DNA from: Pseudomonadota bacterium
GTDB lineage: Bacteria > Myxococcota_A > Polyangia > JAAYKL01
Assembly (NCBI GenBank): GCA_023229365.1
Contig: JALNZK010000002.1
Coordinates: 190,343-254,342 of the forward strand
Length of the DNA stretch: 64,000 nucleotides
Direction of reading: 5' to 3'
Shown: piece after piece, positions 18,494 to 47,762 of the stretch
Numbering within the stretch: position 1 is the stretch's first letter
Layout: each line of letters begins with the position of its first letter
The notes under the pieces: generated by a model
The model's database searches: none
Told to the model about the DNA's origin: nothing
What the model saw: only the letters and a program-made list of their open reading frames with translations
Made by a program: the position numbers and the translations under genes

Positions 18494-19588
18494 TTATATT
18501 TCTGGATATTCCATAATCTTTCCTTCGAAATTTCTTAAAATAACCTTCTCTGGGGTTTGAGAGATCAAATAAGTTGGCAATATTGGAATTTTACCACCAG
18601 GAGTGTCTATCACATATTGAGGGATGGCCAAACCAGATAATCTGCCTCTTAGATGCTCCATAATCTCAATGCCCTTGGCGACCTTTGTTCGAAAGTGATT
18701 GGCACCATTCACTATATCACATTGAAATAAGTAATAAGGTCTTACCCGCATTCTGACAAGTTTGCGGCACAATTCTTCCTGAATAAACTTATCGTCATTC
18801 ACGCCTTTCAATAAAACGGATTGATTATTGACAGGGATACCATTGTCGATGAGTTTTGCACAAGCTGCTTGGGACTGGGCCGTGATTTCCCGAGGATGAT
18901 TGAAATGAGTGTTCACAAAAACTGGTTGGAAATCCTTGAGCGTTTCCACCAATTCGTCATCAATTCTCATTGGTAAAACTACTGGAACTTTGGTGCCGAT
19001 CCTGATGATTTGAACCGATTCAACAGCCCTGACTTGACTGAGAATAAATCGTATGTCATATCTGTCTAATAGCAATGGATCGCCACCAGAAAGAATCACA
19101 TCAGTTATCTCAGGGTGATTTTTAAGATACTCTTTAATATCAGCCACTTCACCATCGGTTAGATTGCAATAGAAAGGACTACCAACTGTTCTTTTTCTGG
19201 TGCAATAACGACAGTAAACACTGCATTGGGCTGTGCAAATAATGAGTGCCCTATCTCTATAACGATGCACAAGATGAGGCACCGGCATTTGTTGGTCTTC
19301 TTGGAGAGGATCATCTACGCAGCAATCTCCCGATAACTCAGCTATATCAGGAACACACATCCTATAGATAGGATCAGATGAGTTGTATTGCTCGATGAGA
19401 GAGAGATAATAAGGCGTAATAGAGAAAGGAAATGTTTGACTGGCCTCTTGAGAAATTGGCAATCCTTTTTTTGCAGCATCTCCTACTGATTGTATCCTGT
19501 TCCTAAGCTGCCACTTCCAATCATTCCATTTACCAGGAGGCTCTTCGGCAACTTCCATGTTACCGAATAAATTCGATTCATTATCCAT
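18494..19588 (-). CDS. radical SAM aminomutase, KamA/EpmB (lysine 2,3-aminomutase) family
   Basis: TAQCSVYCRYCTRKR (the KamA-type CxxxCxxC context) and ILSGGDPLLL. 364 aa, close to EpmB size. Confidence 0.6.
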   Translation of the reverse strand: MDNESNLFGNMEVAEEPPGKWNDWKWQLRNRIQSVGDAAKKGLPISQEASQTFPFSITPYYLSLIEQYNSSDPIYRMCVPDIAELSGDCCVDDPLQEDQQMPVPHLVHRYRDRALIICTAQCSVYCRYCTRKRTVGSPFYCNLTDGEVADIKEYLKNHPEITDVILSGGDPLLLDRYDIRFILSQVRAVESVQIIRIGTKVPVVLPMRIDDELVETLKDFQPVFVNTHFNHPREITAQSQAACAKLIDNGIPVNNQSVLLKGVNDDKFIQEELCRKLVRMRVRPYYLFQCDIVNGANHFRTKVAKGIEIMEHLRGRLSGLAIPQYVIDTPGGKIPILPTYLISQTPEKVILRNFEGKIMEYPEI

Positions 19589-19707: not shown

Positions 19708-19893
19708 ATGGTCAGCAAAAGAAAAATGAAACCAGCACCAAAGCCGATGCCAGTGCCAACGCCAGCACCAAAACCAGCACCAAAGCCTGCACCAGTGCCA
19801 GCACCAAAGCCTGCACCAAAGCCTGCACCAGTGCCAGCACCAGTGCCAGCAAAACCTGCACCAGCACCAGTGACAACGCCAACTAAGGAATAG
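19708..19893 (+). CDS. small Pro/Ala/Lys-rich repeat peptide (PAPKPAPV)n
   Basis: 61 aa, encoded by a degenerate DNA tandem repeat. Divergent from the KamA-like gene. Confidence 0.3.
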   Translation: MVSKRKMKPAPKPMPVPTPAPKPAPKPAPVPAPKPAPKPAPVPAPVPAKPAPAPVTTPTKE

Positions 19894-20509: not shown

Positions 20510-21715
20510 TCATAGCTTTTTCTCTGGATTGTCCCAAACTAATCGTTCTTTGGGAGCATTGATAGATTCGCACAAAAAGGGCGTGGGGTCGGCAATATAA
20601 TCATGCTTCGGTTGTCCTAGCTTCCAAGACTTAGAGGCAGATTTTGTGCCGTGTTTGTAAAGCTCAATATGCAGCATTGCTCTACTATGACCTGGGATGT
20701 CAGGTCGTTCTTTGCCTTCTTTTAGCACCGGAATCACTTCGCCAAGGGGTTGTCCTCTTACAATGATGTCCCCAACCGAAAACGTATATGGCTTAATTTC
20801 ACCATAACAAACCACTCCTGATCGGCCTTCAACCAAAAGGCAATCAGTGTTATTCCACCAGGGAGATTCATCCTGCTCGCCAGTAAAATGCTCAGTGGCT
20901 ACCACTCTGCCAGATTCTACCGCATGGGCAATAGTGCAATTTTCTCTTGACCGAATATGATGATGAACCTCTGATACATAAAATCGGGGTGTATACAAAT
21001 CGACTCCAGTATGATTGGATTGGCGGCGAGGGAATGCAAAAGCCCCAGGATGGTAATTGATGGGAATACCAGGACAATGTTCAATGGGGAATTGCCACTT
21101 CATAAGCCATTTTAGTTTTTCCACAATGAGTGAAATATCAGCCATTGCCCCTTTGCCCTCATCCCCACATGCCAACATCTTTTTCTGAGGAGGAATAACT
21201 TGGAATTGATCCCCAAATAATTTGACAAGTTTGAATAAATGATCTTCGGTAAATGGACTCTCCCACATACGAGTATTCATAGCGGGAGCAACAATCACTG
21301 GTTTCGCCCAATCCCAAGCTCGAAAAACGCTGGTCAAAAGATTGTCGCAAAGACCATTCGCCATTTTGGCCAAAGTATTAGCCGACAAGGGGGCGATTAC
21401 AAAAACATCAGCCCAGTCACGTAGATTGATGTGAACAACTGGGTCATCTTTCTTCCATACATCGGATATTGCCGCAGCCTGCGACGGTGGCGGCTGTGGA
21501 GCAGGTCGGCTCCATTGCCATTCATCGATGTCTCTCCACAATCTGCAATTTAACAGATCGAACCCAGTAATATCTTCTTTGTCGATAAAATGCATTGCCG
21601 ATTCAGTGGAAACAATTTCGACATTGCCAATTTCCGAAAGTTGTTGGCACATTTTCTTTACCAAAACTGTAGCAACCGAACCAGTGATCCCTAAGAGAAT
21701 GTTTGGTTTATTCAT
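20510..21715 (-). CDS. coaC: phosphopantothenoylcysteine decarboxylase (CoaC, HFCD flavoprotein) fused to a C-terminal M23-peptidase-like domain
   Basis: N-terminal half has ILLGITGSVA, DWADVFVIAPLSANTLAKMANGLCDNLLTSV, PVIVAPAMNTRMW and MLACGDEGKGAMA (the CoaC/Dfp signature). C-terminal half has HTGVDL, FSVGDIIVRGQPLGEV and HSRAMLHIELY (M23/LytM-like HxxxD and HxH motifs). Confidence 0.55.
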   Translation of the reverse strand: MNKPNILLGITGSVATVLVKKMCQQLSEIGNVEIVSTESAMHFIDKEDITGFDLLNCRLWRDIDEWQWSRPAPQPPPSQAAAISDVWKKDDPVVHINLRDWADVFVIAPLSANTLAKMANGLCDNLLTSVFRAWDWAKPVIVAPAMNTRMWESPFTEDHLFKLVKLFGDQFQVIPPQKKMLACGDEGKGAMADISLIVEKLKWLMKWQFPIEHCPGIPINYHPGAFAFPRRQSNHTGVDLYTPRFYVSEVHHHIRSRENCTIAHAVESGRVVATEHFTGEQDESPWWNNTDCLLVEGRSGVVCYGEIKPYTFSVGDIIVRGQPLGEVIPVLKEGKERPDIPGHSRAMLHIELYKHGTKSASKSWKLGQPKHDYIADPTPFLCESINAPKERLVWDNPEKKL

Positions 21716-21972
21716 TATTCATCTCCTCTGCCTGGAAGGCCATATCCACCACCTAAATCAAAAGGAATTTCTGGATAATCTTCTATGGGAGTTGGCATTG
21801 GTAGCTTACTCCATTTTTTTAGTTCCGCAGTTAGAAGCTTGATGGTTTCAACATCGTCATCACAGATTTTTTTGTATTCTTTGCACAACCGTGACCAAAA
21901 AATAGTTTGCAGAAAATTGCCGATCACGGCAGCAACGAACAATATTGCAAACAAAATAGCAAGAAATGTCAT
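21715..21972 (-). CDS. small membrane protein
   Basis: 85 aa with a hydrophobic N-terminus. Confidence 0.3.
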   Translation of the reverse strand: MTFLAILFAILFVAAVIGNFLQTIFWSRLCKEYKKICDDDVETIKLLTAELKKWSKLPMPTPIEDYPEIPFDLGGGYGLPGRGDE

Positions 21973-22325
21973 TTTTGTATCCCCACAATTTCAAATGTTG
22001 CTAGTAAACAACAAAAATGGGCGAATTGATCGAAGCCAATGATATTGAAAAAAAGCCTACAAGGACCATGCTTTCTCCATGCCCAGGATGTCAGACGACT
22101 TGAAGAAAAATCCAGTAAAAAATGCAATAGAAAAGTTATGCAAAAATAGAATGCAATCGATGCGGACCAAAAGAAACTGGCCCAAAATGTCATGCCCACA
22201 CTATAAATGAAACAATGAACTCCCAAAGGGATGTATAAATGGTGTTTGTTCGTCGCCATCCAATTGGATTGTGCTAGGAAATCAAACAAATAATGGCACC
22301 ACATCATACTAATTAATAACCACAT
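21969..22325 (-). CDS. membrane protein
   Basis: 118 aa with multiple hydrophobic segments. Confidence 0.3.
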   Translation of the reverse strand: MWLLISMMWCHYLFDFLAQSNWMATNKHHLYIPLGVHCFIYSVGMTFWASFFWSASIAFYFCITFLLHFLLDFSSSRLTSWAWRKHGPCRLFFNIIGFDQFAHFCCLLATFEIVGIQK

Positions 22326-23101
22326 TTTTCCGCCTTGAGTAACGCCAATGACTCGGCAACAACTACACTGGGCAAATAATGCAAAGACCCAGAATGATAT
22401 TCAGAGGTAATGAAACTCTTGTCACTTTTATTCCAGCGGACAAGTCGCAACGTGTGATCGTTGTTTTTGATGTCACGCAAATCATTGGCCACCACCAAAT
22501 CACAACCATTGGTTTCAATGCTTCTACAAGCGGCTTGAAACAACTCATTACTGGTGCTGTTGACCAACAGTTTGAATCCTACCAGTTTACAGCCTGGATG
22601 CCATCGCTTGATTTTACTAATCAGTTTCTCGGCAGGAGCAAGCTGAATGGATAAAGCATCGCTTGACCGTACTTTGCCTTCTGTGGGATTGGATACCAAG
22701 TAATCACTAACAGCCGCTGCCAGAACCACAATGTCGGGCTTTTGGTCCCTGATAATCATTTCCAATTTCAGGGAATATTCATCATAGTTGCGATAATACA
22801 CTTGATGGCAGCGATGACGAACTTTTTGACACCAAAAATAAAAGTCCCAAAACCTATTGATTGATCTTTGATCGTCAGGATGCATATGAAACTGTTCTGC
22901 ATCCGAGGTAAAATCCACATCTATTTTGAATGGACGACAACCATCCTGGGAGCCTAAATACCACACTTCGATATCGTGATCGGTTCTATCGAGAAATGCC
23001 CGACAAATTTTTGCCCCAAAAGTCCCTTTGGACATATTGGTAATATCCCGTACAGCATCAATGGGAACCTTGGTTCCACCACTAGTGACAAGTATTTTCA
23101 T
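22313..23101 (-). CDS. coaB: phosphopantothenate-cysteine ligase (CoaB)
   Basis: ILVTSGGTKVPIDAVRDITNMSKGTFG (compare ITAGPTxEPIDPVRxISNxSSGKMG), IVVLAAAVSDY, LVGFKLL, DLVVANDL. Confidence 0.6.
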   Translation of the reverse strand: MKILVTSGGTKVPIDAVRDITNMSKGTFGAKICRAFLDRTDHDIEVWYLGSQDGCRPFKIDVDFTSDAEQFHMHPDDQRSINRFWDFYFWCQKVRHRCHQVYYRNYDEYSLKLEMIIRDQKPDIVVLAAAVSDYLVSNPTEGKVRSSDALSIQLAPAEKLISKIKRWHPGCKLVGFKLLVNSTSNELFQAACRSIETNGCDLVVANDLRDIKNNDHTLRLVRWNKSDKSFITSEYHSGSLHYLPSVVVAESLALLKAEKCGY

Positions 23102-23894
23102 CGCAAGCCCTTTCCAGGTTTACATGCAACTCTGCCAATCTGAACAATAACTTGTTCATTTCATCTGCCAAATCTTCTCGCCGCCACTTTTCTATCAAAT
23201 CTTTACCACGCTGTGCCAATGCCTTTTCTCTTTCTAATTCTTTCTCTAGCTCATTGATTTTCAATTGAGAATATTCAGCACCACCGCCAGCTATAGCGAT
23301 GAAAGGCACAATTACAGCCATCATATACCAACCAACATAAACAGCAAATAAACTAAAGAGAGCAGAAGTCACACAACTGCCAATAAAAGAAATTTTCGTG
23401 GCTTTTTCCAGCGGTAGCCAACGAGCTAAGCTCGATCTTATGACTCTACCACCATCAAGCGGAAACACAGGAACGAAAAGATTAAAAGCGGCCCACATCA
23501 AATTGAGCTTTCCTAAACCAAAATCAGAATCATCAAAATATAGTAAAATTAGACCCAGCACCAACGAAATAAAAGGCCCAGTAATGGCAATTAACAATTC
23601 TTGATTTGGGTTTTTGCCCCAATCGCCGTCGATATAAGCGGCGGCACCAAATGGATACCACACAATTTTGGTGGTGCGGAAGCCAAAATGCTGTGCCACT
23701 AGGGAGTGTCCGAGTTCGTGAGCGGTAATACAAATGAACACAAGGAGCAACATACACAAGACGGCAAATGATTCAAGAAAACTCCCGCAAAAAAGAGGAA
23801 TAAGCAGCATTGGCCCGAAAAAGCACCACCAAAAAATGCTGGTTTTAATTGGGATGTTACATAATTTTGCCAAATATAGATTTTTCAATTTCAT
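23082..23894 (-). CDS. membrane zinc metalloprotease, M50/site-2-protease-like
   Basis: HELGHSLVAQHFG (HExxH) within a polytopic membrane protein. C-terminal coiled coil. Confidence 0.45.
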   Translation of the reverse strand: MKLKNLYLAKLCNIPIKTSIFWWCFFGPMLLIPLFCGSFLESFAVLCMLLLVFICITAHELGHSLVAQHFGFRTTKIVWYPFGAAAYIDGDWGKNPNQELLIAITGPFISLVLGLILLYFDDSDFGLGKLNLMWAAFNLFVPVFPLDGGRVIRSSLARWLPLEKATKISFIGSCVTSALFSLFAVYVGWYMMAVIVPFIAIAGGGAEYSQLKINELEKELEREKALAQRGKDLIEKWRREDLADEMNKLLFRLAELHVNLERACDENTCH

Positions 23895-26474: not shown

Positions 26475-26670
26475 TGAGCTTCCTACATACGTTGATAAGC
26501 GTATTTAAAGAGGCAGAGCGGTGATACCCTCCGCAGTATTTACACTTGTAAACTGTCTGATTTTTGCAAATAGCCGCTTCTTCAGTGGTGTATCTTTTTT
26601 TGCGGCCACAAGCCCGAAGACGACGATTATTTTGTTTGGCTATTTCTGCAAAATGAGCATATTTATTCAT
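26440..26670 (-). CDS. small zinc-ribbon protein
   Basis: CKNQTVYKCKYCGGYH. Confidence 0.3.
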   Translation of the reverse strand: MNKYAHFAEIAKQNNRRLRACGRKKRYTTEEAAICKNQTVYKCKYCGGYHRSASLNTLINVCRKLNEHKQSKRQQI

Positions 26671-27575
26671 AAATCTACCATTACATCTACTCGTTGGCCG
26701 GGAAGTAAATTACAATTTTTTAAAGAGAGCCAAAATTCTCTGGTCTTTGTATCTGTTTTTTCAGAGGGCATATCAGAAAATAATACCTTTCTTCCTAAAA
26801 AAGGTGCTGCCTGAGTTACAATTGCTTTTATTGGTTGGAAATTATCAAATGTAATTTTAGCAGATTGTCCTACTTTTATTAAAGAGGCATCAAGTTCATC
26901 AACATAAGCCCTGACTCGTAATTCTGAAATATCTGCCATTATAATTAATGGCATTTGAGAGGTGGCAATTTCTCCAATTCTGGCATCTATTTTTAGAATT
27001 TTGCCATCTATTGGTGCTTCTATTTTTGTGTGGTCTAATTTTATTTGTGCCAATTGTATTTGGGATTTTGATATTTCTATTTGTGACTTGGCAACATCAA
27101 TCTCTGCCCTCAAAGAATCGTAGGAACATTTTAATATGTCCATACCCTCTTCAGACAATACTTTCTTCTTGTTTAATATAATCCCTCTTTCCAAATTCAA
27201 CTTTGCCAACTTTAGTTGTGCCTCTTTAGCCTGTAACAATCCTTTGTTTGCTAATTCCTGAACTATAGCCAACTCTTTCTCGAAAAAATATTGTCTGGCA
27301 TCTATTTCTAGTAAAACATCTCCTTTTTTTACTAATTGATTTTCCCGAACAGGAATGCTTTTTATCTGCCCGGAGATTAGGACACACAAATATGTGTTCT
27401 CCGTTTTTCCTTCGATTCTGCCTGAAGCAAAAACACATTGTTTTTGTGGTAGCGGCGGTCTCACAATAGCAGGGCTGCTATTGTGATCTATTAAAAATGC
27501 TATACCTAATATGACGCCAATACATAAAACAAAAAAAGCAATTATTTTACCACGCATGGTCAATAATTCATCCAA
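26667..27575 (-). CDS. HlyD-family membrane-fusion (periplasmic adaptor) protein
   Basis: N-terminal TM segment, long coiled coil, and beta-barrel region IEAPIDGKILKIDARIGE. Confidence 0.5.
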   Translation of the reverse strand: MDELLTMRGKIIAFFVLCIGVILGIAFLIDHNSSPAIVRPPLPQKQCVFASGRIEGKTENTYLCVLISGQIKSIPVRENQLVKKGDVLLEIDARQYFFEKELAIVQELANKGLLQAKEAQLKLAKLNLERGIILNKKKVLSEEGMDILKCSYDSLRAEIDVAKSQIEISKSQIQLAQIKLDHTKIEAPIDGKILKIDARIGEIATSQMPLIIMADISELRVRAYVDELDASLIKVGQSAKITFDNFQPIKAIVTQAAPFLGRKVLFSDMPSEKTDTKTREFWLSLKNCNLLPGQRVDVMVDL

Positions 27576-28351
27576 AGATTTTCAGTTACTACTGTTTTTT
27601 TACGAGTAGCAGCACCCTTTAGTTCCGCACCCCTGCCAATTGACAATTTTTTGTAGCCTTTTAGCTCTTTGGCATAAAGGTCCGTTTCATAACCACTAAG
27701 AGCCCATCTGAAAGACACACTCTTTAACATCAATAATAACACAGAATGATCGATTTGTCCATAATACTCATCCGATGTTTCGTGATAGGGCGGATCAAGA
27801 TAAACAAAATCTTTGGGACCATAGGTAGTCCAGGGAAGATTTTGCCAATGAAGAGAGGTAATTTTCACGCCCTGAGCAGACAGCAATTCCTTTGCCATTG
27901 CAGCACGGGGAATATATTTGTCTCTAGTAAAAGGTGGATGTGACCCCATTTTGCCTTCTGGAGCTTCATACCCCAAATTAGCACCAGCCGACCAACCTTT
28001 TCCACCCCATGTAATTTCAGGCTCCAAAACAACACCAAGAGGGTTTTCTTTCTCTGCTTGTTTTTGCCAATGCTGAAAACTTTTTTTAGACGTAATAGAT
28101 TTAGGGAGTTTTTCCAAGTCAGCGGCTAAAAGAGAGTTGAAAAAGTTTCCCCGCAAGTCATTGATATGCCATTCTTGGAAATCTAATTCCTGCTTGGCTT
28201 TGAAAAACACATTACCCCGCCCAGCAAAAGGCTCTACATAAATTCTTCCTTCTTTAGGGAAATGGGCAAGCAACCAATTGCGTAATCGACTTTTGCCCCC
28301 TACTGTGCGAAATGACGGTGTTTTCATTCCCATCCATTGTTTAAAATCCAT
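27560..28351 (-). CDS. Dam-like N6-adenine DNA methyltransferase
   Basis: YVEPFAGRGNVFF (motif I) and FVYLDPPY (DPPY motif IV). Confidence 0.65.
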   Translation of the reverse strand: MDFKQWMGMKTPSFRTVGGKSRLRNWLLAHFPKEGRIYVEPFAGRGNVFFKAKQELDFQEWHINDLRGNFFNSLLAADLEKLPKSITSKKSFQHWQKQAEKENPLGVVLEPEITWGGKGWSAGANLGYEAPEGKMGSHPPFTRDKYIPRAAMAKELLSAQGVKITSLHWQNLPWTTYGPKDFVYLDPPYHETSDEYYGQIDHSVLLLMLKSVSFRWALSGYETDLYAKELKGYKKLSIGRGAELKGAATRKKTVVTENLWMNY

Positions 28352-29477: not shown

Positions 29478-30002
29478 TTACTTCCAAACCCCCCTGTGGT
29501 TTTTCTGAGCTTCTTTTTGAGCAGCGGCAAAATCTTTTCGATTTACCGTGGTTTTTGCCAATCCTGCTCGCAATTGTTCTATGCAGCAATTGTTACCGTT
29601 TTCAGCATAGACAATACCAGCATACCTTCCCCAGCTTTCAAGGACTTCGACTCGCACATCATCATTGGGAGAAACAATTTTAGAAAGATTTTCTTGAGCC
29701 TGTTTGCCAACTGTAGGAGGTATTTCGAGACCATAGAGATACAAATCACTTTCTCTACGGCCAAACAATCCAGCCCTCACAGTTAGATGATTGCCTCCCT
29801 CTACACTCACAACTGCTTCTGTGCCAATAAGTGTTTCTTCTTTGTGTCTGCTAAAAATGCGATTAGAACAAGCGGCCCACCCCAAGATGAAGCAGAAAAT
29901 GTATGGAAAGGATTTTCTGGCATAAGGATAAACGAATTTTACAAATGACCAGCACCAGCCAGCGATTGTAAGAACTAGATTGACAATAGATACCCAACCC
30001 AT
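29478..30002 (-). CDS. membrane-anchored SNase (thermonuclease)-like protein, paralog 1
   Basis: N-terminal TM. C-terminal WGRYAGIVYAENG...CIEQLRAGLAKT...AAQKEAQKNHRGVWK is the SNase C-terminal signature. Confidence 0.45.
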   Translation of the reverse strand: MGWVSIVNLVLTIAGWCWSFVKFVYPYARKSFPYIFCFILGWAACSNRIFSRHKEETLIGTEAVVSVEGGNHLTVRAGLFGRRESDLYLYGLEIPPTVGKQAQENLSKIVSPNDDVRVEVLESWGRYAGIVYAENGNNCCIEQLRAGLAKTTVNRKDFAAAQKEAQKNHRGVWK

Positions 30003-30195: not shown

Positions 30196-30414
30196 TCAGC
30201 CCCCTTTCGCTTGCCAATAAAAAGCAATCAGCGTACAAACACCAGTTGCAACAGCTATAACAGGCAACAGAAGGACAGCACAACCCGATAATACTGTTAG
30301 GGTTACAATAAAATCCTTGTCCTGCTTTTGTTTTTGTTTAAAATACCACCAAAGATAGGTAGTAACCAAACAAATAACCAATGATACGATTCCTACGCCT
30401 TGGAGCATCGTCAT
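30196..30414 (-). CDS. small membrane protein
   Basis: 72 aa with two hydrophobic helices. Confidence 0.3.
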   Translation of the reverse strand: MTMLQGVGIVSLVICLVTTYLWWYFKQKQKQDKDFIVTLTVLSGCAVLLLPVIAVATGVCTLIAFYWQAKGG

Positions 30415-31046
30415 TTAGCACCCCCTTCTTCTGTTTCCTTAGTTTTCTTTTTTGCCCAAATACCTCTGTGTGCTTTTTGGGCTTCTTTTTGGGCTGCTAA
30501 GAGTGCGTTATTATCTTTCTCCACAGAGACTTTGGCCAATCCAGCTTTCAATTGTTCCAAACAACAATTCTCGCCACTCTTAGAATATGGCAATCCTGAA
30601 ATATCTCCAAATTTATCCTCTACCCACCCTTCAGCACCTTCTTTAATTTCCACACGAATTTCATCATCAGCAGAAATTAATTGTTCCAAATTAACTTTTG
30701 CTTCTTTTTCCACCTCTGCCGGTATGGATATTCCCCAAAGCGTACAATTTTTGGTTCGCCGTGAACGATCACGTATTCCAGCTTTTAACTTGATAACATT
30801 ACCACTATCTACAGTGACAACAACCTCAGTTTTTGTCACTGTTTTTCCAAAAAACTTATCAATAGTGTTCCTGATTTTATGGCAACCCCACATCCCAAAA
30901 AGCAAACTGGCCAGGGAGATTAGAATTGGTGCCAACACCAACAGGGATATAAATTGTTTTTGAGCCCTTCTTCGCTTATAATCCCAAACTGCCCAACCAA
31001 CTAGAAAGGCAATAAACAAAAGAACTAAAACGTCATAAATACTCAT
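30411..31046 (-). CDS. membrane-anchored SNase-like protein, paralog 2
   Basis: GISIPAEVEKEAK...CLEQLKAGLAKV...AAQKEAQKAHRGIWAK, paralogous to 29478..30002. Confidence 0.45.
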   Translation of the reverse strand: MSIYDVLVLLFIAFLVGWAVWDYKRRRAQKQFISLLVLAPILISLASLLFGMWGCHKIRNTIDKFFGKTVTKTEVVVTVDSGNVIKLKAGIRDRSRRTKNCTLWGISIPAEVEKEAKVNLEQLISADDEIRVEIKEGAEGWVEDKFGDISGLPYSKSGENCCLEQLKAGLAKVSVEKDNNALLAAQKEAQKAHRGIWAKKKTKETEEGGAK

Positions 31047-36623: not shown

Positions 36624-37238
36624 TTGATGAATCGACTTATCTTTATTATAATTATACTGAATCAGATATTAATGGCAACTCTTGTTCATTGCAAAAGATA
36701 TCCTGTGCCGGAAAGTTTTATGATACAAAACTTCCCCACCATTACACAACCAGATGATATTTCTTGTGGACCCACAAGTTGTGTAATGGTTGCTGAATAT
36801 TATGGCAAAAAACTAACGGTTGTAGAAGCAAAAAAACTCGGGAAAACTATCTGGGGAACATATAAAGGAAAAGAAATAGGCATGACATCTCCAGATTATG
36901 TTCCTGTTATTTTGCAAAAAGTGGGTTTATCTATCACGTTAGAAAAAGGTAATCTAAATAAATTGCAGCATTATGTCTCCCTCAATAAGCCAATTATGGT
37001 GCTTGTGCGTACTGGGGATAAATTTTGGCATTATGTAGTAGTTATTGGCTATAATCAAGATAAAATCTTTATTTCTGACCCTGGTTTTGGCGAAATTTAC
37101 AGCATATCGAATAAAGATTTCTTGTCCGCATGGAGTTTTTCTGGTACTTTGCGTGGCGAAAAAATACCAACAAATTTGTATGGAATGATAGTAGAATGGG
37201 CAGATGTTAAAGGAAATTTAATGTTTGTCCCTAAATAA
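36624..37238 (+). CDS. papain-like C39-family cysteine peptidase with signal/TM N-terminus
   Basis: QPDDISCGPTSCVMVAEYYG (compare C39 Qx5CGxAxLxM), WHYVVVIGYN (His) and IFISDPGFG (Asp). Confidence 0.45.
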   Translation: MMNRLIFIIIILNQILMATLVHCKRYPVPESFMIQNFPTITQPDDISCGPTSCVMVAEYYGKKLTVVEAKKLGKTIWGTYKGKEIGMTSPDYVPVILQKVGLSITLEKGNLNKLQHYVSLNKPIMVLVRTGDKFWHYVVVIGYNQDKIFISDPGFGEIYSISNKDFLSAWSFSGTLRGEKIPTNLYGMIVEWADVKGNLMFVPK

Positions 37239-40727: not shown

Positions 40728-41099
40728 TTATTGTCGTTCTTTGGGGTGAGTTTTGGATTTTAAAGTTACAATAATAGCTCCTAAATTCCAATCATTTTCC
40801 ACCGCATAAGAAAAATTATGTCGATCTAGCACATCTTTGACTAATTGCTGCATTATTGGGCTGTTGCCCGTTATTATCCGAGCAGGCAGATTTTTGAGAA
40901 AAACAAAATTCTCAACCAATCTGTCTACTTGATGATGCCTAACACTATGTAGGTCTAATTCATCCATAGCGGAGACTAAAGGAATCGAACCTTCACCGGG
41001 GTTTAAGCCGGGCTTGTTTTCGAAACAAGTGCGACAAAGCCAATATTCGCCTAATCTCCATTTTTTGTCAATTCGTTCCAAGAACCAATTCTTTTCCAA
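40728..41099 (-). CDS. hypothetical protein
   Basis: 123 aa. Confidence 0.3.
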   Translation of the reverse strand: MEKNWFLERIDKKWRLGEYWLCRTCFENKPGLNPGEGSIPLVSAMDELDLHSVRHHQVDRLVENFVFLKNLPARIITGNSPIMQQLVKDVLDRHNFSYAVENDWNLGAIIVTLKSKTHPKERQ

Positions 41100-41497
41100 T
41101 GAACACTGCCTTTGGAAAGTTTATTGAAAAACGCCTGTGTTATACAAACCTCACAATTTTGTATAAACATCTCTCCTTCTTCTGCTTTTAAAGGATCGTT
41201 CCATCTATTTCCATCAAACAGAGCTATTAGAACAAAAGTCTCACTGGCCACCTGTGCCAGTATCCAATAGCCATGTTCATTATGAAATATATCACCACTT
41301 TTATACATCATTGGTGGTAATCTACAGAGCGTTGGTTTGCCCAAGGGAATTTCAGCACAGGGATTTTGCACTTTGGATCGAACCTTTGGTTCCAATGGAA
41401 TTTCACTGTAATAGTCCCAATTACGATTCTGTCCATATTGTTCTTCCAACCACTTATTATAGCATTCTTCGTCTTCAATGTATGGATTGGAATACAT
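41051..41497 (-). CDS. hypothetical protein
   Basis: 148 aa. Confidence 0.3.
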   Translation of the reverse strand: MYSNPYIEDEECYNKWLEEQYGQNRNWDYYSEIPLEPKVRSKVQNPCAEIPLGKPTLCRLPPMMYKSGDIFHNEHGYWILAQVASETFVLIALFDGNRWNDPLKAEEGEMFIQNCEVCITQAFFNKLSKGSVHWKRIGSWNELTKNGD

Positions 41498-41499
41498 GC

Positions 41500-42117
41500 T
41501 TATTTTTTCACAAATGAGAAACCAGCAAGGTCTTCATTTTGGCTTTCTCTGTCTTGGTCGAAACCATGAAAAAGATGATCCAATATTGCTTTGCTGTCTA
41601 CCAATCCACAATGCTTGTAATGTACCACTTTCTCTCCACCATGTCGCACCACAACAATTATTGCTTTGATTCTAATGAGCCAATCTACCACATGCTTATA
41701 AAGCAATGCATCCATTCCCTTATCTGTCATTTCTTCTATTGTTAGTAATTCGTATTCCTTATAATAACCACGAGGGGTTATGATAAAACCACAACGATCA
41801 GGACGGAGGTTGGCTGCTAATTTCTTGTTTCGTAGCCATGTGCATTTATAATCTCTGCACAACTGGGGACGGGTTTCATAACAATCACAACCCCCACCCT
41901 CTCTTATGTATGCACACATTGCTTTTGCAGGTTTGTCCCCTTGTTCAAAAAGAAAACAACAGGCATAACAATCACCACAACTATGTGGACGATCTCGAAA
42001 TAATTGCTGCTTTTTATTCCGCTCAGCAGCTTTCTTTTTCTTTTTTTCTAGCTTTTTATTCATAGTGCCCAGGACAGGAGTCGAACCTGCACGGGATTGC
42101 TCCCGCCAGCCCCTCAA
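41500..42117 (-). CDS. Cys-rich hypothetical protein
   Basis: CGDCYACCF...CDCY...CTW. Confidence 0.35.
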   Translation of the reverse strand: MRGWREQSRAGSTPVLGTMNKKLEKKKKKAAERNKKQQLFRDRPHSCGDCYACCFLFEQGDKPAKAMCAYIREGGGCDCYETRPQLCRDYKCTWLRNKKLAANLRPDRCGFIITPRGYYKEYELLTIEEMTDKGMDALLYKHVVDWLIRIKAIIVVVRHGGEKVVHYKHCGLVDSKAILDHLFHGFDQDRESQNEDLAGFSFVKK

Positions 42118-42148
42118 GCTGGTGCGGCTGCCATTTCGCCACCTGGGC
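42066..42148 (-). tRNA. tRNA-Leu (anticodon GAG), class II
   Basis: Hand fold: acceptor gcccagg/cctgggc, anticodon loop ttGAGgg, long variable arm, T-loop GGTTCGACTCC, discriminator A. Confidence 0.6.
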
Positions 42149-42769
42149 TTACAAATGTTGCTTATCTATCCAACCCCTGCTTTTTCTTCCTTTGCCACGA
42201 TTTCTTCCAGCGAAGGTAGGCAATTGCATATCGCAGTTACCACAAACCAACCTTACATTTTCTAATCTATGGTCTTCGGGATCGCCGTTGATGTGATCCA
42301 AAATAAGCGGGATAGGTTTTCCCATCCATTCGCTATTATTGCAGATTTCACATTGCCTTCCTCTAGTTTCAGCTAAATACTTTTTCGCCATGCTCGGATT
42401 ATATCCGTAACCACAATTGGTTGGCAACAAAGCATTACTACTCTCGATCAATTCCTTCTTTTTCTTCCATTTCGATTCATTATTGCAGGCGTAGGAACAG
42501 TATTTTTTGTTCGTGGTTAAAGAGCCACAATTTAAACACTTGCAAAGTACCGGGCTTTGGGTGTTCCTCGCCACTCCTTTGTTGTTGAAGCTTGCCGAAC
42601 AGCCACTACTACAGAAGTCATTCCTTCTTTTCTCATACGCTATTGTGAGTCCACAATTTTTACATAATTTAGGCTTCAGCAAGTACCGATCAAGGCATCT
42701 TTTGTGCTTTTCTCGCTGATAATGTCTGTTTTTTAATCCGCCTAATCTTCCACATTCGCTTTTATTCAT
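42149..42769 (-). CDS. HNH endonuclease with N-terminal zinc-ribbon repeats
   Basis: ILDHINGDPEDHRLENVRLVCGNCDMQ (HNH). CKNCGLTIAYEKRRNDFCSSGC and CLNCGS...YCSYAC modules. Confidence 0.55.
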   Translation of the reverse strand: MNKSECGRLGGLKNRHYQREKHKRCLDRYLLKPKLCKNCGLTIAYEKRRNDFCSSGCSASFNNKGVARNTQSPVLCKCLNCGSLTTNKKYCSYACNNESKWKKKKELIESSNALLPTNCGYGYNPSMAKKYLAETRGRQCEICNNSEWMGKPIPLILDHINGDPEDHRLENVRLVCGNCDMQLPTFAGRNRGKGRKSRGWIDKQHL

Positions 42770-42927
42770 TGCTACCTCTGTTTCTTGAAAATAATTATAA
42801 GATTATATAGTAATCCTACATTCATTTTTCGAGAAACAAATTTGGCAAGAGCTACTTATTGGAATTACACCAATGCCTTCGCATTACGAGTGCGATATAC
42901 TGCTGACTATACGAAAGTAGCATAAGC

Positions 42928-43013
42928 GGAAGGTGTGGGAGTCGAACCCACAAGGCTTTTTACACTCGTCCGCTTTCCAAGCGGGTGCCGTCGCCAATCG
43001 GCTAGACCTTCCT
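42928..43013 (-). tRNA. tRNA-Ser (GGA), class II
   Basis: Acceptor ggaaggt/accttcc, anticodon loop ttGGAaa, long variable arm, T-loop GGTTCGACTCC. Confidence 0.55.
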
Positions 43014-43319
43014 TTTAAACAACTCTGGATTTTCTGCTACAATGCGTTTTGTTTCTTCGTGACGCAACCGCCAATCCTCTTCTTCCTGGGCCATATCACG
43101 AATCAACTGCCCAGTAGCCAGAAATTTGTCCACACAATCATCACAGATGCCGAAAATAAATCGTTCTAAATCATGTCTCGACCCATAGCCAGCCATGAAA
43201 CCATCCACGTTAGCATCATCCCAGCAACTGCTTTGCGGCGTGCCATCCGACGTTTCGGGGTAGGGTTGCAATTGCTTGCAACAGCCTATACAGAGGATTT
43301 TAACATCTTTTGCCTTCAT
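43002..43319 (-). CDS. Cys-rich small protein (start trimmed to an internal Met to clear the tRNA)
   Basis: MKAKDVKILCIGCCKQ...CDDCVDKF. The ORF-track N-terminus overlaps tRNA-Ser(UGA). Confidence 0.35.
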   Translation of the reverse strand: MKAKDVKILCIGCCKQLQPYPETSDGTPQSSCWDDANVDGFMAGYGSRHDLERFIFGICDDCVDKFLATGQLIRDMAQEEEDWRLRHEETKRIVAENPELFKRKV

Positions 43320-43331
43320 TACAATCTCCAG

Positions 43332-43414
43332 CGGAAGCGACAGGATTCGAACCTGCAACCCGTCTTAGGGGCAACGGTTTTCAAGACCGCCCGCTAACCA
43401 TTCGCCTCGCTTCC
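43332..43414 (-). tRNA. tRNA-Ser (UGA), class II
   Basis: Acceptor ggaagcg/cgcttcc, anticodon loop ctTGAaa, long variable arm, T-loop GGTTCGAATCC. Confidence 0.55.
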
Positions 43415-43680
43415 TAATGAGCCTCAAATCCCTTCTTCTCAATATCCTGTTTAATTTGTTCTATTACCTTAGTTCTGTTCACATAAGATTGGATCACGTA
43501 TTGTCTGCCACTTGATGTAGTCAATTCGTTTGTTTCCTCATCAAAAACTTTAGGTGTAGAAACAAACACCGATTTTCCATCTTCAAAATTAGGATGCCCA
43601 TAGACTTGCCCAGATAGCCTCCAAACATCCATCCCACAACCTAATTCCATTTCGTATTTTGCATTTTCTAATATAACCAT
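43414..43680 (-). CDS. hypothetical small protein
   Basis: 88 aa. Confidence 0.3.
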   Translation of the reverse strand: MVILENAKYEMELGCGMDVWRLSGQVYGHPNFEDGKSVFVSTPKVFDEETNELTTSSGRQYVIQSYVNRTKVIEQIKQDIEKKGFEAH

Positions 43681-44105
43681 TAAAAATTTCCTTCTGTCAT
43701 GGCTTTGACAAATGCTTTTGCCATCACCATCCCGCCAGTTGTGGGAACAAATCTCGCAATTGGTGAATAAAAATCAGGATTGTTGGAAAAATGTGGATCA
43801 ATACTACCTTGTGCCAATAAATCCGCCACTGTTCCCTCAGCATAGACCAAGATTTTTACACCCTCAAAGTTTGTGCAATCAGGATATTTAATCCTGACAA
43901 TCAAAAATTCTCCAATTTGTTCCGAATATAAAATCTCAAAATTCTTTGGATTAGGATTCGGAAATTTCTTTTTTGCCTTCCTCCTCCCCTGTGTTTGCAC
44001 CTGACAAGTCTCTGGTGATTGCTGCTGGTTACAATTGCAATATACAACCGTTGGCTTATCGTATGAAGAAGAACTGCCACCAAAACCAAGTCCCATGATT
44101 AGCAT
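43680..44105 (-). CDS. hypothetical protein
   Basis: 141 aa. Confidence 0.3.
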   Translation of the reverse strand: MLIMGLGFGGSSSSYDKPTVVYCNCNQQQSPETCQVQTQGRRKAKKKFPNPNPKNFEILYSEQIGEFLIVRIKYPDCTNFEGVKILVYAEGTVADLLAQGSIDPHFSNNPDFYSPIARFVPTTGGMVMAKAFVKAMTEGNF

Positions 44106-45523
44106 GCCTCCTTTTGTAATTTAGCATCCCTGCGAGCTTTCTTTAATCTATTCGAACAACTTACAGAGCAGGTTTCGTGAGTTGCTTTGCGTTTGGTGTA
44201 CACTTTTTTACACACCAAACAACGAGCCGTTTTTTTTGCCACTGAAGCTTTGAAACATTCTTGGCTGCAAAATCTTGATTGGGCTTTTGTTCTTGCATGA
44301 AACTTTTGACGACAAAATTCACAACAGTAAATTGGCCACGATTGTTTTCGACATTCTTCACTGCAATACTTGGCACCATTTGATTGTTTGGAAAGAATCT
44401 TAAATATATTGCCACAAATTTTGCATTTCTTTTTTGTCAAAAGTCCTTTTGCCGATGCCTCTACATTCTCTTTCTTTAACTGTTGGATTTTATAATAATC
44501 AGTGTTCCAACACTTTTTACTGCAATACATTTGTGTGGCATAATTTACGCCAAATTCTTTTTTGCAACAAATGCAAATTCTTTTGTTTTTTCCACGTTTT
44601 CTGTGTTTTTCTGCCCACCAAGCATTACAACATTTTTTTGAGCAAAATAATGAAATATAGGATTTTGGCTTAAATATATTCCCACAATTCTTGCAGGGAC
44701 GTGGATTCAGCAGTTCTGGGAACTTTCGCCTCACCAAGCTTTTGCATTTTACACTACAATATATCTTTCTAGAGGTTGGTACATCAAACACGTTTCCACA
44801 AATACATATCCTGCGTTGCTCTAGCCACCGCAACACTTTTTTCAAACGTATGCGAATTGCTTCTTTGGTTAGTCCTAATTCATCGCCTATCTCTTTAAGG
44901 GTCATTCTGCGACCCTTCAAACCGTAATATCGAAAAAGGACATCTCTGTATTTTTTAGGTATTTGTTTACGACGCACTAAAGACAACACTTCGTCAACCT
45001 GTTTTGCAACTTCGCTTTGTTGTCCTCTGTTAATATTATCAATTGGCTCTAAGGTTTTGTCTTCTTCAATACAACAACTAAAAGACCCAACAGTTTTTAC
45101 TTTATTTATTTGTTGAAGAAGGGCTTCGTCTTTTGAAGATATTTCTTCTTTATCTTGAGATAGCCGAAATGCTCTTTTGTTTGCCCATTGCGGGATATAA
45201 ATAATTTTTTTCTGAGCACGGGCATCATTTATAGCATGTTCAACCGCTGTGCTGACATAAGTTGACAGCTTTGCTGTGATTCCATCCCAATGATCTACAG
45301 CACGACATATGGCTATGCTGGCTTCTGTTAAAAACTCATCATCTATTTCTTTGCCCTTACAGGCGTCTCTTACTTTGCTAAACGCTAGACGCAAACAAGA
45401 TTCGATGAGCTTGTGTCTTGCTTCTTGGTTGCCTGCCTTTGCTTTTGGAAGCAATTCCAAACACTCTTGATGACTTAGTATTTTGACATGTTTTAAATCA
45501 TTTAAATAAGCATCAATATCCAC
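44099..45523 (-). CDS. sigma-70-family sigma factor with C-terminal zinc-ribbon repeat extension; start uncertain
   Basis: VLFRYYGLKGRRMTLKEIGDELGLTKEAIRIRLKKVLRWL (region 4 HTH), region 2-like KLIESCLRLAFSKVRD, then about 200 aa of CxxCGNxF...YCSxKC repeats. The ORF-track start at 45619 overlaps a tRNA, and no ATG lies downstream of it. The first in-frame alternative is a GTG at 45523 (V of FIVDID), used here as the proposed start. Confidence 0.55.
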   Translation of the reverse strand: MDIDAYLNDLKHVKILSHQECLELLPKAKAGNQEARHKLIESCLRLAFSKVRDACKGKEIDDEFLTEASIAICRAVDHWDGITAKLSTYVSTAVEHAINDARAQKKIIYIPQWANKRAFRLSQDKEEISSKDEALLQQINKVKTVGSFSCCIEEDKTLEPIDNINRGQQSEVAKQVDEVLSLVRRKQIPKKYRDVLFRYYGLKGRRMTLKEIGDELGLTKEAIRIRLKKVLRWLEQRRICICGNVFDVPTSRKIYCSVKCKSLVRRKFPELLNPRPCKNCGNIFKPKSYISLFCSKKCCNAWWAEKHRKRGKNKRICICCKKEFGVNYATQMYCSKKCWNTDYYKIQQLKKENVEASAKGLLTKKKCKICGNIFKILSKQSNGAKYCSEECRKQSWPIYCCEFCRQKFHARTKAQSRFCSQECFKASVAKKTARCLVCKKVYTKRKATHETCSVSCSNRLKKARRDAKLQKEAC

Positions 45524-45558
45524 AATAAACTTCCTTGTGTTTGTATCATCTTGCAGAG

Positions 45559-45634
45559 TAGCACCAGGGGGATTCGAACCCACCACTACCCAGTGTTTAA
45601 AACTGGTGACTTCTGCCAATTGGTCTATGGTGCC
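45559..45634 (-). tRNA. class I tRNA-like gene, anticodon UAA (Leu-type anticodon, short variable arm)
   Basis: Hand fold: acceptor ggcacca/tggtgct with G1-U72, D-loop aattggcag, anticodon arm ccagt-ttTAAac-actgg, T-loop GGTTCGAATCC, discriminator A. Confidence 0.45.
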
Positions 45635-45639
45635 ATGAG

Positions 45640-45713
45640 TAGCGAGGAGGGGATTCGAACCCCTACTGTCTGGTTCCTAAGACCAGTGCCGCTGCCAATT
45701 GGGCTACCTCGCC
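45640..45713 (-). tRNA. class I tRNA-like gene, anticodon UAG (Leu-type anticodon, short variable arm)
   Basis: Anticodon arm ctggt-ctTAGga-accag. Backbone identical to the gene at 47763..47836 except the anticodon arm. Confidence 0.45.
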
Positions 45714-45715
45714 AT

Positions 45716-46033
45716 TTATGATTGTTCTATATCCTGAACATCAACTCTTTTCCTAAGTTCTTTGAAAATTTCGTGTGCAGCTTCTTTTCCAGTTGTTGCA
45801 GCATCAAGCTTCTTTATCAATTCTGTTGTGCCTAATTTCCACACAGCATATTCTTCATCGGTTTCACAGAGTATTAAATTCAGTTTACCAAACCGAACTA
45901 CAGTCGAATGAGGATTGTCAGACAACCTTCGTAACGATTGTGCTGTTCCTGTGTTGACTCGGATAACAAGGTCTACATCTGAGTTTGCGTTTGGCTTGCC
46001 GTAAGCTCTACTGCCCGTAATAAATGCGTTCAT
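45716..46033 (-). CDS. minimal nucleotidyltransferase (MNT/MntA-like)
   Basis: GSRAYGKPNANSDVDLVI (GSxxxGxxxxxSDxDL Pol-beta NTase motif). Confidence 0.5.
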   Translation of the reverse strand: MNAFITGSRAYGKPNANSDVDLVIRVNTGTAQSLRRLSDNPHSTVVRFGKLNLILCETDEEYAVWKLGTTELIKKLDAATTGKEAAHEIFKELRKRVDVQDIEQS

Positions 46034-46311
46034 TTTTTTACCTTGTCATCGTTCACTGGCCAATGCTTTCTGCCTTCTGAAACATGCTCTAATGCTTCTC
46101 GGATTATTTCAGGTGATTCCTCAATCTCAACAAAAGCCCACCCTGGCGGGCAATTGCCTACATTTTTCTTGGGAGATACCATCACCCCCAAGTGTTCGCC
46201 ACAAGTTGCTAGCCCGCCACCAATCGATTTGAGAAATTCCGCATAACTGAGATTATCTGGAACTTCCAAATCATTCCCATGTTCATCCTTGCGACCAATG
46301 ACTTTCATTTT
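46030..46311 (-). CDS. small protein overlapping the MNT gene by 4 nt; possible HEPN-like partner
   Basis: Contains REALEH (an Rx4H motif). Start trimmed to internal MKVIGRK to avoid the tRNA overlap. Weak call. Confidence 0.25.
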   Translation of the reverse strand, partial: KMKVIGRKDEHGNDLEVPDNLSYAEFLKSIGGGLATCGEHLGVMVSPKKNVGNCPPGWAFVEIEESPEIIREALEHVSEGRKHWPVNDDKVKK

Positions 46312-46320
46312 TTCTCCAAG

Positions 46321-46406
46321 CGGAAACGGAGGGAGTCGAACCCCCAAGGCTTTTTACACTCATCTGTTTTCAGAACAGGTTTCGTCACCAATCGATTTGC
46401 GTTTCC
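46321..46406 (-). tRNA. class II Ser-like tRNA, anticodon UGA with atypical loop (C at position 33)
   Basis: Variable arm gagtgtaaaaagccttggg is nearly identical to tRNA-Ser(GGA). Anticodon loop tcTGAaa. Confidence 0.4.
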
Positions 46407-46411
46407 GAAAG

Positions 46412-46485
46412 TAGCACCAGAAGGATTCGAACCTTCACTGAACAGTGTTTGAAACTGTTGCCGCTGCCAATTGGGCTATGGTGCC
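46412..46485 (-). tRNA. class I tRNA-like gene, anticodon CAA
   Basis: Anticodon arm acagt-ttCAAac-actgt. Same acceptor/D backbone as the gene at 45559..45634. Confidence 0.45.
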
Positions 46486-46490
46486 ATAAG

Positions 46491-46564
46491 TAGCATCGGT
46501 GGGATTCGAACCCACAACCTCTACATTTTGAGTGTAGCGACTCTGCCAGTTGGTCTACGATGCC
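46491..46564 (-). tRNA. class I tRNA-like gene, anticodon CAA
   Basis: Acceptor ggcatcg/cgatgct, anticodon arm ctaca-ctCAAaa-tgtag, T-loop GGTTCGAATCC. Confidence 0.45.
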
Positions 46565-46570
46565 AAAATA

Positions 46571-47266: not shown

Positions 47267-47280
47267 ATTTTTTCCTTTGT

Positions 47281-47502
47281 TTAATTCAAATGTACTGTAC
47301 CACGACCTTTGGTGGTTCTTACGATTTTTGTTATACCATCTTTTTCAACTTTTACAATACGAAGTGGATCACTTGGATACAAAGAGTCAAATGCGTCTAC
47401 ATAACCATCGCAATAAGCTCTTGTTTTATGCTCTATAAAAGATACTTTACGCCATCCAAGATCGCCACTGTTTCTCTCTACGTAATACATTTTTTTCTCC
47501 AA
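47281..47502 (-). CDS. hypothetical small protein
   Basis: 73 aa. Confidence 0.3.
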   Translation of the reverse strand: MEKKMYYVERNSGDLGWRKVSFIEHKTRAYCDGYVDAFDSLYPSDPLRIVKVEKDGITKIVRTTKGRGTVHLN

Positions 47503-47503
47503 G

Positions 47504-47578
47504 TGCCACGAGCGAGATTCGAACTCGCACTGTCTAGTATCTCGGACTAGCGACTCCTACCAATTGGTCTACCGTGGC
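47504..47578 (-). tRNA. class I tRNA-like gene, anticodon GAG (C at position 33)
   Basis: Acceptor gccacgg/tcgtggc, anticodon arm ctagt-ccGAGat-actag, T-loop GAGTTCGAATCTC. Confidence 0.35.
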
Positions 47579-47584
47579 GTACAT

Positions 47585-47740: not shown

Positions 47741-47762
47741 ATTATTTCTCGGGTGTGTAAAG

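Follow-up and report, generated by a model that had tools for sequence, protein, structure and literature searches.

Probable auxiliary genes of giant phages for the two middle steps towards coenzyme A, with a LytM-fold partner domain

In bacteria, the two middle steps of coenzyme A (CoA) synthesis are usually assigned to Dfp (CoaBC), a single polypeptide that joins a 4'-phosphopantothenate-cysteine ligase (CoaB) to a 4'-phosphopantothenoylcysteine (PPC) decarboxylase (CoaC). The locus described here lies in a 64,000-nucleotide stretch of DNA (the window; contig JALNZK010000002.1, positions 190,343 to 254,342) and encodes enzymes for what would be the same two reactions. Unlike in Dfp, they are divided between two genes, and CoaC is of the eukaryotic type. 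It is fused to a C-terminal domain with the fold of LytM and other M23 peptidases. We believe that the two genes probably form an auxiliary module of giant phages for these two steps, in which the LytM-fold domain is a phage-specific, non-lytic partner. The window derives from a giant phage; in support of the phage origin originally predicted, it contains matches to a gp32-like single-stranded DNA-binding protein, a DnaB-like helicase and a DNA polymerase, and 17 tRNA genes. A protein identical to the fusion is on record from a 340,072-bp contig deposited as a metagenome-assembled genome (MAG) of a 'Proteobacteria bacterium'.

Both predicted open reading frames (ORFs) were recovered from the ORF list, which places them on the minus strand:

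20510-21715, minus strand: fusion of CoaC and a LytM-fold domain, 401 aa
21101..21715, minus strand: CoaC domain (fusion residues 1-205), predicted FMN-dependent 4'-phosphopantothenoylcysteine decarboxylase of the eukaryote/Hal3 type
20510..21100, minus strand: C-terminal LytM/M23-fold domain (fusion residues 206-401), zinc ligands retained, both catalytic histidines substituted
22313-23101, minus strand: monofunctional CoaB-type 4'-phosphopantothenate-cysteine ligase, 262 aa, soluble

The N-terminal half of the fusion is of the genuine PPC-decarboxylase type, and its decarboxylase activity is predicted from homology and conserved catalytic residues. The Pfam Flavoprotein family (PF02441) matches residues 5-201 (E 8e-31; 107 bits, cut-off 22.7). 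Its closest solved relatives were AtHAL3a (1e20, E 1.4e-49), human PPCDC (1qzu, 2.7e-43) and a fungal Hal3; matches to Mycobacterium smegmatis CoaBC (1e-12), EpiD (1e-11), MrsD (8e-6) and UbiX (7e-3) were weaker. A profile built from 102 family members gave the same ranking, with PPCDC ahead of the LanD and UbiX enzymes, and E-values for PPCDC ranged from 1e-49 to 1e-61 across searches. Foldseek superimposed the full-length model on AtHAL3a with its bound reaction intermediate (1mvn) with a template modelling (TM) score of 0.92 and 47% identity, compared with a TM of about 0.83 and 21-25% identity for EpiD. It found no solved structure that spans both halves of the fusion (best TM normalised to the query, 0.42). 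By alignment, H95 (codon 21431-21433), N147 (21275-21277) and C183 (21167-21169) correspond to H90, N142 and C175 of AtHAL3a. H95 and C183 are invariant in alignments of 27 and 102 sequences, and N147 is invariant in the smaller set and at least 90% conserved in the larger. The four motifs quoted in the original prediction are all present: PLSANT (residues 109-114), ACGD (182-185), HTGVD (235-239) and HIELY (349-353).

Through the cysteine of its ACGD clamp, CoaC can reduce the ene-thiol intermediate; LanD enzymes such as EpiD and MrsD lack this residue. This distinction bears on the proposal that the fusion instead belongs to a pathway for ribosomally synthesized and post-translationally modified peptides (RiPPs), with a LanD-like peptidyl-cysteine decarboxylase acting on a peptide and the M23-like domain serving as a leader or Gly-Gly peptidase. 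EpiD and MrsD share the HFCD fold and the FMN site with the phage protein, and radical-SAM, M50, HlyD-like and probable C39-like peptidase genes are found elsewhere in the window. LanD enzymes nevertheless act on peptide substrates, and PPCDC is far closer to the phage protein than they are (E 1e-49 for AtHAL3a against 1e-11 for EpiD, with the TM scores above). The reducing cysteine is invariant, and the single conserved neighbour of the fusion is CoaB, the maker of the PPC substrate. The candidate RiPP genes are scattered over 18 kb, with HlyD at 26.7 kb and, on the opposite strand, the probable C39-like gene at 36.6 kb; HlyD and C39 are 3-15 kb away, neither they nor the radical-SAM gene is conserved with the module, and no lanthipeptide genes accompany it. 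We therefore reject the RiPP reading, to which we give hardly any weight. A better alignment to LanD enzymes had been named in advance as an outcome that would overturn the CoaC assignment; the alignments went the other way.

The predicted CoaB matches the DFP family (PF04127) with E 9.4e-25 (87.9 bits against 22) and the NCBIfam models PRK06732 (E 2.4e-36) and coaB_strep (E 1.3e-31). Its best solved relatives are a pneumococcal CoaB-like protein (2gk4, E 9e-20) and human PPCS, and the SGGT, ITNxSxG, AAVSDY and GKVRSS motifs are readable in alignments to them. We take the Asn of ITNxSxG and the Lys motif to have the catalytic roles familiar from E. coli CoaB. No hydrophobic segment is apparent in its hydropathy profile. 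The predicted separation of CoaB from CoaC thus stands, with two membrane-protein genes between them. The presence of CoaB near the fusion was also correctly predicted, but with respect to transcription it lies upstream of the fusion and not downstream.

Metagenomes contain thousands of relatives of the fusion. The 120 top-ranking ones are all 345-423 aa long with at least 90% query cover, and several are on contigs of 200-345 kb. Hundreds of metagenomic fusion proteins come from contigs of 100-735 kb, and the contigs of the IMG/VR loci mostly measure 100-620 kb. Of 18 distinct IMG/VR loci with the fusion, 17 have CoaB 0-2.8 kb upstream and on the same strand, in agreement with five contexts that were examined singly, and CoaB is also upstream on the same strand in L073, L074 and L077 (L numbers denote our locus set, P numbers single proteins). 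In the published 735-kb phage LR756501 the fusion is present and CoaB directly follows it. When 2,251 ORFs from 72 loci were clustered all against all, CoaB was the sole conserved neighbour; in this clustering, the KamA-type, 85-aa, 90-aa, 138-aa and HlyD proteins of the window did not recur near the module.

The same parts also occur in other arrangements. P0207 (355 aa) has the reversed order, with the M23-like domain preceding CoaC, while a 'Bdellovibrionota' MAG contig (L076, 4432-6453) carries CoaC, CoaB and M23 in a single ORF of 674 aa, counted from stop to stop; these two are independent rearrangements. CoaC, CoaB and M23 are three separate adjoining genes in L041 and stand in a row in L088, and in L089 a classical bifunctional CoaBC lies beside M23. 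Further CoA genes are found within 10 kb of some modules: a PPAT-like gene (phosphopantetheine adenylyltransferase) in L013, L024 and L085, and CoaE (dephospho-CoA kinase, DPCK; PF01121, E 1e-50) in L064. In two loci (L011, 9660-9998; L014, 4121-4468), CoaB and the fusion are separated by a gene for a 112-115-aa protein whose sequence includes YYHELAHAVGNL, an HExxH motif. This protein may be a small zincin-like protein, and has no Pfam match in L011. Five viral genomes of 188-307 kb (IMG genome ids; L025-L027, L033 and L040), in which the surrounding genes are syntenic, encode a eukaryote-type CoaC alone, with neither CoaB nor an M23-like domain within 10 kb of it.

We then turn to the C-terminal domain of the fusion. 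Taken alone, the domain of the window scores 15.4 bits against Pfam M23 (PF01551; gathering threshold 28.7), and relatives from XacN1 (39.6), RAS14 (34.3) and P0239 (47.6) exceed the threshold. An AlphaFold2 model of the domain, computed with an alignment of 102 homologues, had a predicted local distance difference test (pLDDT) of 92.5, and the predicted structure and the profile alignments together bear out the M23 fold that had been proposed for this half. Residues were mapped by profile alignments to zoocin A and StM23, and to lysostaphin by hhalign (probability 94%), as follows:

H235 and D239 of the fusion: lysostaphin H279 and D283, zinc ligands
H349 of the fusion: lysostaphin H362, zinc ligand
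E306 of the fusion: lysostaphin H329, a catalytic histidine there
M347 of the fusion: lysostaphin H360, a catalytic histidine there

The LytM counterparts of the two catalytic histidines are H260 and H291. Conservation was assessed in 149 representatives of clusters at 50% identity, 143-148 of which are aligned at each position; H235, D239, Y304, E306, M347, L348 and H349 are conserved in every aligned representative, and Glu306 and Met347 replace both catalytic histidines in 148 of 148. Of the HxxxD/HxH signature in the original prediction, the three zinc ligands are therefore kept, but the HxH element reads M347-L-H349 and the catalytic histidines are gone. We accordingly file the domain under the LytM fold and not as a canonical M23 peptidase. 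On sequence evidence, it is a distinct LytM branch that keeps the residues of the metal site and has an invariant carboxylate at one catalytic-histidine position. The AlphaFold2 model of the full-length fusion (pLDDT 94.2; predicted TM score, pTM, 0.91) has no low-confidence stretch in the linker. The two halves are thus likely to make up a single rigid body, the LytM-like domain being packed on CoaC.

The original prediction also considered a moonlighting, lysis-associated role, in which a virion or lysis peptidoglycan hydrolase would double as part of a metabolic enzyme. The M23 fold and its zinc ligands would suit such an enzyme, the same block of genes in the window encodes an M50 protease and two membrane proteins, and gp441 of phage PA5oct, a standalone homologue, has been annotated as a murein hydrolase. 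That label comes from bioinformatics only, and gp441 was not detected in virions (PMC7318152). Neither a signal peptide nor a hydrophobic segment or membrane anchor is found in the fusion by hydropathy, and standalone homologues lack a hydrophobic segment at their N-termini; a lysis role is therefore unlikely. The catalytic histidines are replaced. In structure, ordinary phage M23 lysins match only remotely (E about 1e-5, TM <0.55), compared with 1e-12 for a jumbo-phage homologue, the adjoining membrane genes do not stay with the module in other loci, and standalone copies are located among small early or accessory genes. Together with the predicted rigid packing on a cytosolic flavoenzyme and the fusions to CoaC or NUDIX domains in either order, these observations make the lysis proposal very improbable. 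We infer from the fusions and gene neighbourhoods that the LytM-like domain acts in the cytoplasm with CoaB/CoaC-type (DFP-family) enzymes, as their dedicated partner, and is unlikely to be a lysin.

A search with the domain only, against 1.84 billion representatives, recovered 652 clusters, 510 of them at E <1e-10. The best 149 clusters comprise 50 standalone proteins (about 155-230 aa), 46 CoaC-M23 fusions, two M23-CoaC fusions and 51 with other extensions, including NUDIX in either order and weak HD_4 matches. The same domain was found at 25 loci in a search of 185,579 species genomes, all on MAG contigs of scattered phyla and none in an isolate, so that the family is essentially phage-borne. 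Cultured jumbo phages have standalone members (PA5oct gp441, XacN1 ORF423, and those of RAS14 and CM1), which are annotated as 'peptidase M23' or hypothetical and sit among small accessory genes.

At many of the 25 species-genome loci the standalone gene is directly after, or faces, a gene for a DFP-like protein with an aldolase-II domain, sometimes with GNAT and NUDIX domains as well. Such fusions of a DFP-like (CoaB-like) domain to a class-II aldolase lie beside standalone M23-like genes in 11 loci (L034, L038, L046, L052, L067, L078, L081, L084, L086, L093 and L095). Three of the proteins also have GNAT and NUDIX domains (687-752 aa), and an ADP-ribosylglycohydrolase is often adjacent. This DFP-like/aldolase-II family may represent an undescribed phage metabolite pathway. 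The N-terminal DFP-like part of these proteins is also encoded, under the label 'hypothetical protein', by the cultured Caulobacter jumbo phages CcrSC and CcrBL9 and by phiPsa374-like Pseudomonas phages.

We considered whether all fusion partners might yield 4'-phosphopantetheine, as CoaC, a CoA-pyrophosphatase NUDIX and an AcpH-type HD protein would. This was not supported. By NCBIfam the NUDIX partners are generic and MutT/YtkD-like, with CoA pyrophosphatase ranking 11th (E 6e-5); a partial NuCoA-like motif was seen by eye in P0223, and the HD_4 matches are weak.

In the scheme that we favour for the enzymes, which draws on homology, CoaB would use a nucleotide to activate the carboxylate of 4'-phosphopantothenate and would then join cysteine to it. 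The FMN-binding N-terminal half of the fusion, with His95, Asn147 and Cys183, would remove the cysteine carboxylate to give 4'-phosphopantetheine. PPAT and DPCK of the host, or phage copies in some relatives, would complete CoA; alternatively, the product would feed carrier proteins. For the LytM-like domain our leading, though tentative, guess is that it uses zinc to hydrolyse a small cytoplasmic amide linked to the pathway, with Glu306 as general base. We favour it because the metal ligands and Glu306 are invariant.

Our second choice, possible but held with less conviction, is a zinc-stabilized docking or regulatory domain of the LECT2 or EnvC kind. The LytM domains of EnvC, NlpD, SpoIIQ and DipM are extracytoplasmic scaffolds that have usually lost their metal ligands, and LECT2 is secreted, yet keeps its zinc triad. 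As a scaffold, the phage domain would be a non-catalytic LytM domain with a structural zinc that tethers a CoaB-type ligase, or another partner, to the CoaC oligomer and so replaces the covalent link of Dfp. This we consider rather unlikely, since the ligands and the acidic residue at the catalytic position are invariant (148/148), whereas scaffold LytM domains usually lose the ligands, the triple fusion in L076 would need no tether, and standalone copies occur in phages without any DFP-like gene.

If the domain is a small-amide hydrolase, its substrate might be the product of CoaC itself. M23 enzymes such as lysostaphin and LytM favour residues without side-chains on both sides of the scissile bond, and the unbranched beta-alanyl-cysteamine amide of 4'-phosphopantetheine is sterically Gly-Gly-like. 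Its hydrolysis would turn CoaB, CoaC and the M23-like domain into a cycle, driven by nucleotide, in which cysteine becomes cysteamine, or another small thiol is made, and 4'-phosphopantothenate is regenerated. The rigid fusion, in either order, to the enzyme that makes the amide, the invariant metal site and Glu306, and the lack of downstream CoA enzymes in the window are all consistent with such a cycle. It is, however, purely conjectural. The PPAT and CoaE genes close to some modules speak for onward conversion of the product to CoA, and the domain accompanies NUDIX domains and DFP-like proteins without CoaC, where the reaction makes no sense. The related idea of CoA-pyrophosphatase-type NUDIX partners found no support from NCBIfam. 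We regard product cleavage as improbable. An equally long shot is a broader version of the same idea, in which the H-D-H site with Glu306 would be a new kind of cytoplasmic amidohydrolase for small amides made by DFP-type ligases. The module would then be a three-step cysteamine or thiol machine with 4'-phosphopantothenate as recycled carrier, within a wider phage pathway, possibly one of counter-defence, that includes the DFP-like, aldolase-II, GNAT and NUDIX proteins and the ADP-ribosylglycohydrolases.

Several observations weigh against assigning the module to CoA synthesis with a dedicated LytM-fold partner. Both enzymes fall below NCBIfam equivalog cut-offs: the CoaC half scores 125.7 bits with coaC_strep (cut-off 261.4) and 120.5 with coaBC_dfp (219.7), bacterial-type models that align only to fusion residues 79-202, and CoaB scores 125.7 with PRK06732 (265) and 110.1 with coaB_strep (217.2). 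Altered substrates are therefore possible. The relative orientation of the two fusion domains in the model rests on pTM only. PPAT, DPCK, acyl carrier protein (ACP) and the phosphopantetheinyl transferase (PPTase) AcpS gave no match in the 64-kb window with E. coli query sequences, and pantothenate kinase (PanK) was absent from a Pfam survey of its 88 ORFs, no sequence search having been aimed at it. With no PanK, PPAT, DPCK, ACP or PPTase in the window, boosting the middle steps alone has no evident benefit. No CoaB or DFP-like gene was found in PA5oct, XacN1, RAS14 or CM1, which carry the standalone domain, so that the link to the DFP family is frequent and not universal; a DFP-like gene is within 10 kb in only about 6 of 35 standalone IMG/VR loci. 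The domain is also fused to generic NUDIX domains, and together with the standalone copies this means that its function cannot strictly need a phage CoaBC. Even so, we consider it probable that the module serves giant phages in the two middle steps on the way to CoA.

The module is part of a larger block in the window, to which the following genes also belong:

21715-21972, minus strand: 85-aa protein with a single N-terminal membrane segment (hydropathy 2.72 across residues 1-27)
21969-22325, minus strand: DUF3307 membrane protein (PF11750, E 7e-7) with hydrophobic segments
23082-23894, minus strand: M50 (site-2-protease-like) membrane metalloprotease (PF02163, E 3.4e-16) with several hydrophobic segments

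The first two are the small membrane-protein genes that had been noted between CoaB and the fusion. In the order of transcription the block reads M50, CoaB, DUF3307, 85-aa protein and fusion. Neighbours overlap by 1-20 nt (M50 and the CoaB start, 20 nt; CoaB and DUF3307, 13 nt; DUF3307 and the 85-aa gene, 4 nt), and the stop of the 85-aa gene overlaps the fusion start in an ATGA-type junction. The overlaps point to a single co-directional block that is probably co-translated. The 85-aa protein has no family match in Pfam and no homologue in the related loci. DUF3307, which in the window has conserved His/Asp motifs, recurs once, 0.6 kb downstream of the fusion on a 511-kb viral contig (L015, 11678-12130, E 1.6e-10); this proximity may reflect a weak functional link or chance. 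An M50 homologue likewise recurs once, 1.2 kb from a standalone M23-like gene on an unrelated MAG contig (L078, 7734-8498; PF02163, E 1e-14). DUF3307 and M50 are thus part of the block in the window and not conserved members of the module.

Outside this block the window contains the following features:

18494-19588, minus strand: KamA-type radical-SAM aminomutase (TIGR03820, lysine 2,3-aminomutase, E 5.5e-133, under the cut-off), with a LAM_C domain
19708-19893, plus strand: 61-aa ORF of near-pure Pro/Ala/Lys/Val repeats (PAPKPAPVPAPK...)
26667-27575, minus strand: HlyD-type membrane-fusion protein
27560-28351, minus strand: Dam-type N6-adenine methyltransferase
29478-30002 and 30411-31046, minus strand: closely spaced pair of paralogues resembling staphylococcal nuclease (PF00565, E about 3e-6 and 5e-6)
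36624-37238, plus strand: probable C39-like cysteine peptidase, placed by its QxxxxxCG motif only, the Pfam match being unmapped to an ORF
40969-50245, minus strand: cluster of 17 tRNA genes (10 Leu, 4 Ser, 2 Phe, 1 Tyr)
44099-45619, minus strand: 506-aa ORF with N-terminal sigma-factor-like and C-terminal HNH-endonuclease matches (PHROGs)

The KamA-type gene, 0.9 kb downstream of the fusion, is an unusual find in a phage and is not linked to the module in related loci. The neighbours of the 61-aa ORF are all on the opposite strand and a mirror ORF is found on the minus strand; the ORF may encode a genuine repeat protein or be a repeat in non-coding DNA. The HlyD, Dam and C39-like genes are not adjacent to one another, and such export or bacteriocin-type parts are odd for a phage. 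The tRNA cluster is very skewed in composition; its duplicated tRNAs include Leu-CAA, Leu-CAG, Leu-GAG, Leu-TAA and Phe-GAA, and the Pfam survey of the window also detected a class-I (Glu/Gln) tRNA-synthetase catalytic domain and a TyrRS C-terminal domain. The start of the 506-aa ORF overlaps a tRNA-Leu gene (45558-45634), and the true start is therefore probably later.

Full-text literature searches found no description of a CoaC-M23 fusion or of a phage CoaB or CoaC. Viromics surveys (e.g. PMC8940887) mention viral 'pantothenate/CoA' auxiliary genes as no more than a category. The original prediction that the fusion is undescribed thus holds for the literature, but the fusion is not rare: it belongs to a large giant-phage family in metagenomes, and the domain pair is already listed for many homologues in public databases. 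The enzymes and the fold are known; what is new is their widespread, conserved combination with an altered active site. Among giant phages the module is very common, and it is both specific and tightly conserved; its third component was not to be expected. A catalytic LytM-like domain would carry the M23 fold beyond cell-wall peptidases into cytoplasmic metabolism and would present a Glu-for-His solution in the active site. A docking domain, on the other hand, would be an example of how phages rebuild a CoaB-CoaC complex that bacteria reach through gene fusion. Either way, hundreds of phage proteins labelled 'peptidase M23 / murein hydrolase' or 'PPC decarboxylase' are mislabelled or incompletely labelled. 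The cultured jumbo phages PA5oct, XacN1 and RAS14 offer genetic access to the standalone form.

Compared with known systems, the phage CoaC is closest to AtHAL3a and human PPCDC, with which it shares 47-48% identity over about 200 aa and the DEW...DPVLHIELR, PAMNxxMW and ACGD motifs; unlike them, it is phage-encoded and continues at its C-terminus into a LytM-fold domain of about 200 aa. The phage CoaB resembles the monofunctional CoaB of streptococci and enterococci (TIGR02114/PRK06732; 2gk4) and human PPCS in its DFP domain, its motifs and its separation from CoaC, but an inserted stretch of about 60 aa separates its N-terminal nucleotide loop from AAVSDY, and it scores far under the equivalog cut-offs. 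The standalone proteins of PA5oct, XacN1 and RAS14/CM1 belong to the same subfamily as the domain in the window (35-40% identical, with the YGE and MLH motifs), from which they differ in being 155-165 aa long and not fused to CoaC. The M23 peptidases lysostaphin, LytM, Csd3 and zoocin A have catalytic histidines (His329 and His360 in lysostaphin) where the phage domain has invariant Glu and Met. In further contrast to these peptidases, the phage fusion lacks a secretion signal and a wall-binding domain, its partners are cytosolic, and its LytM-fold domain has extra conserved insertions (FTG...PWW and GKERPDIPGHS). Finally, the invariant Glu at a catalytic position distinguishes the phage domain from LECT2, EnvC, NlpD, SpoIIQ and DipM.

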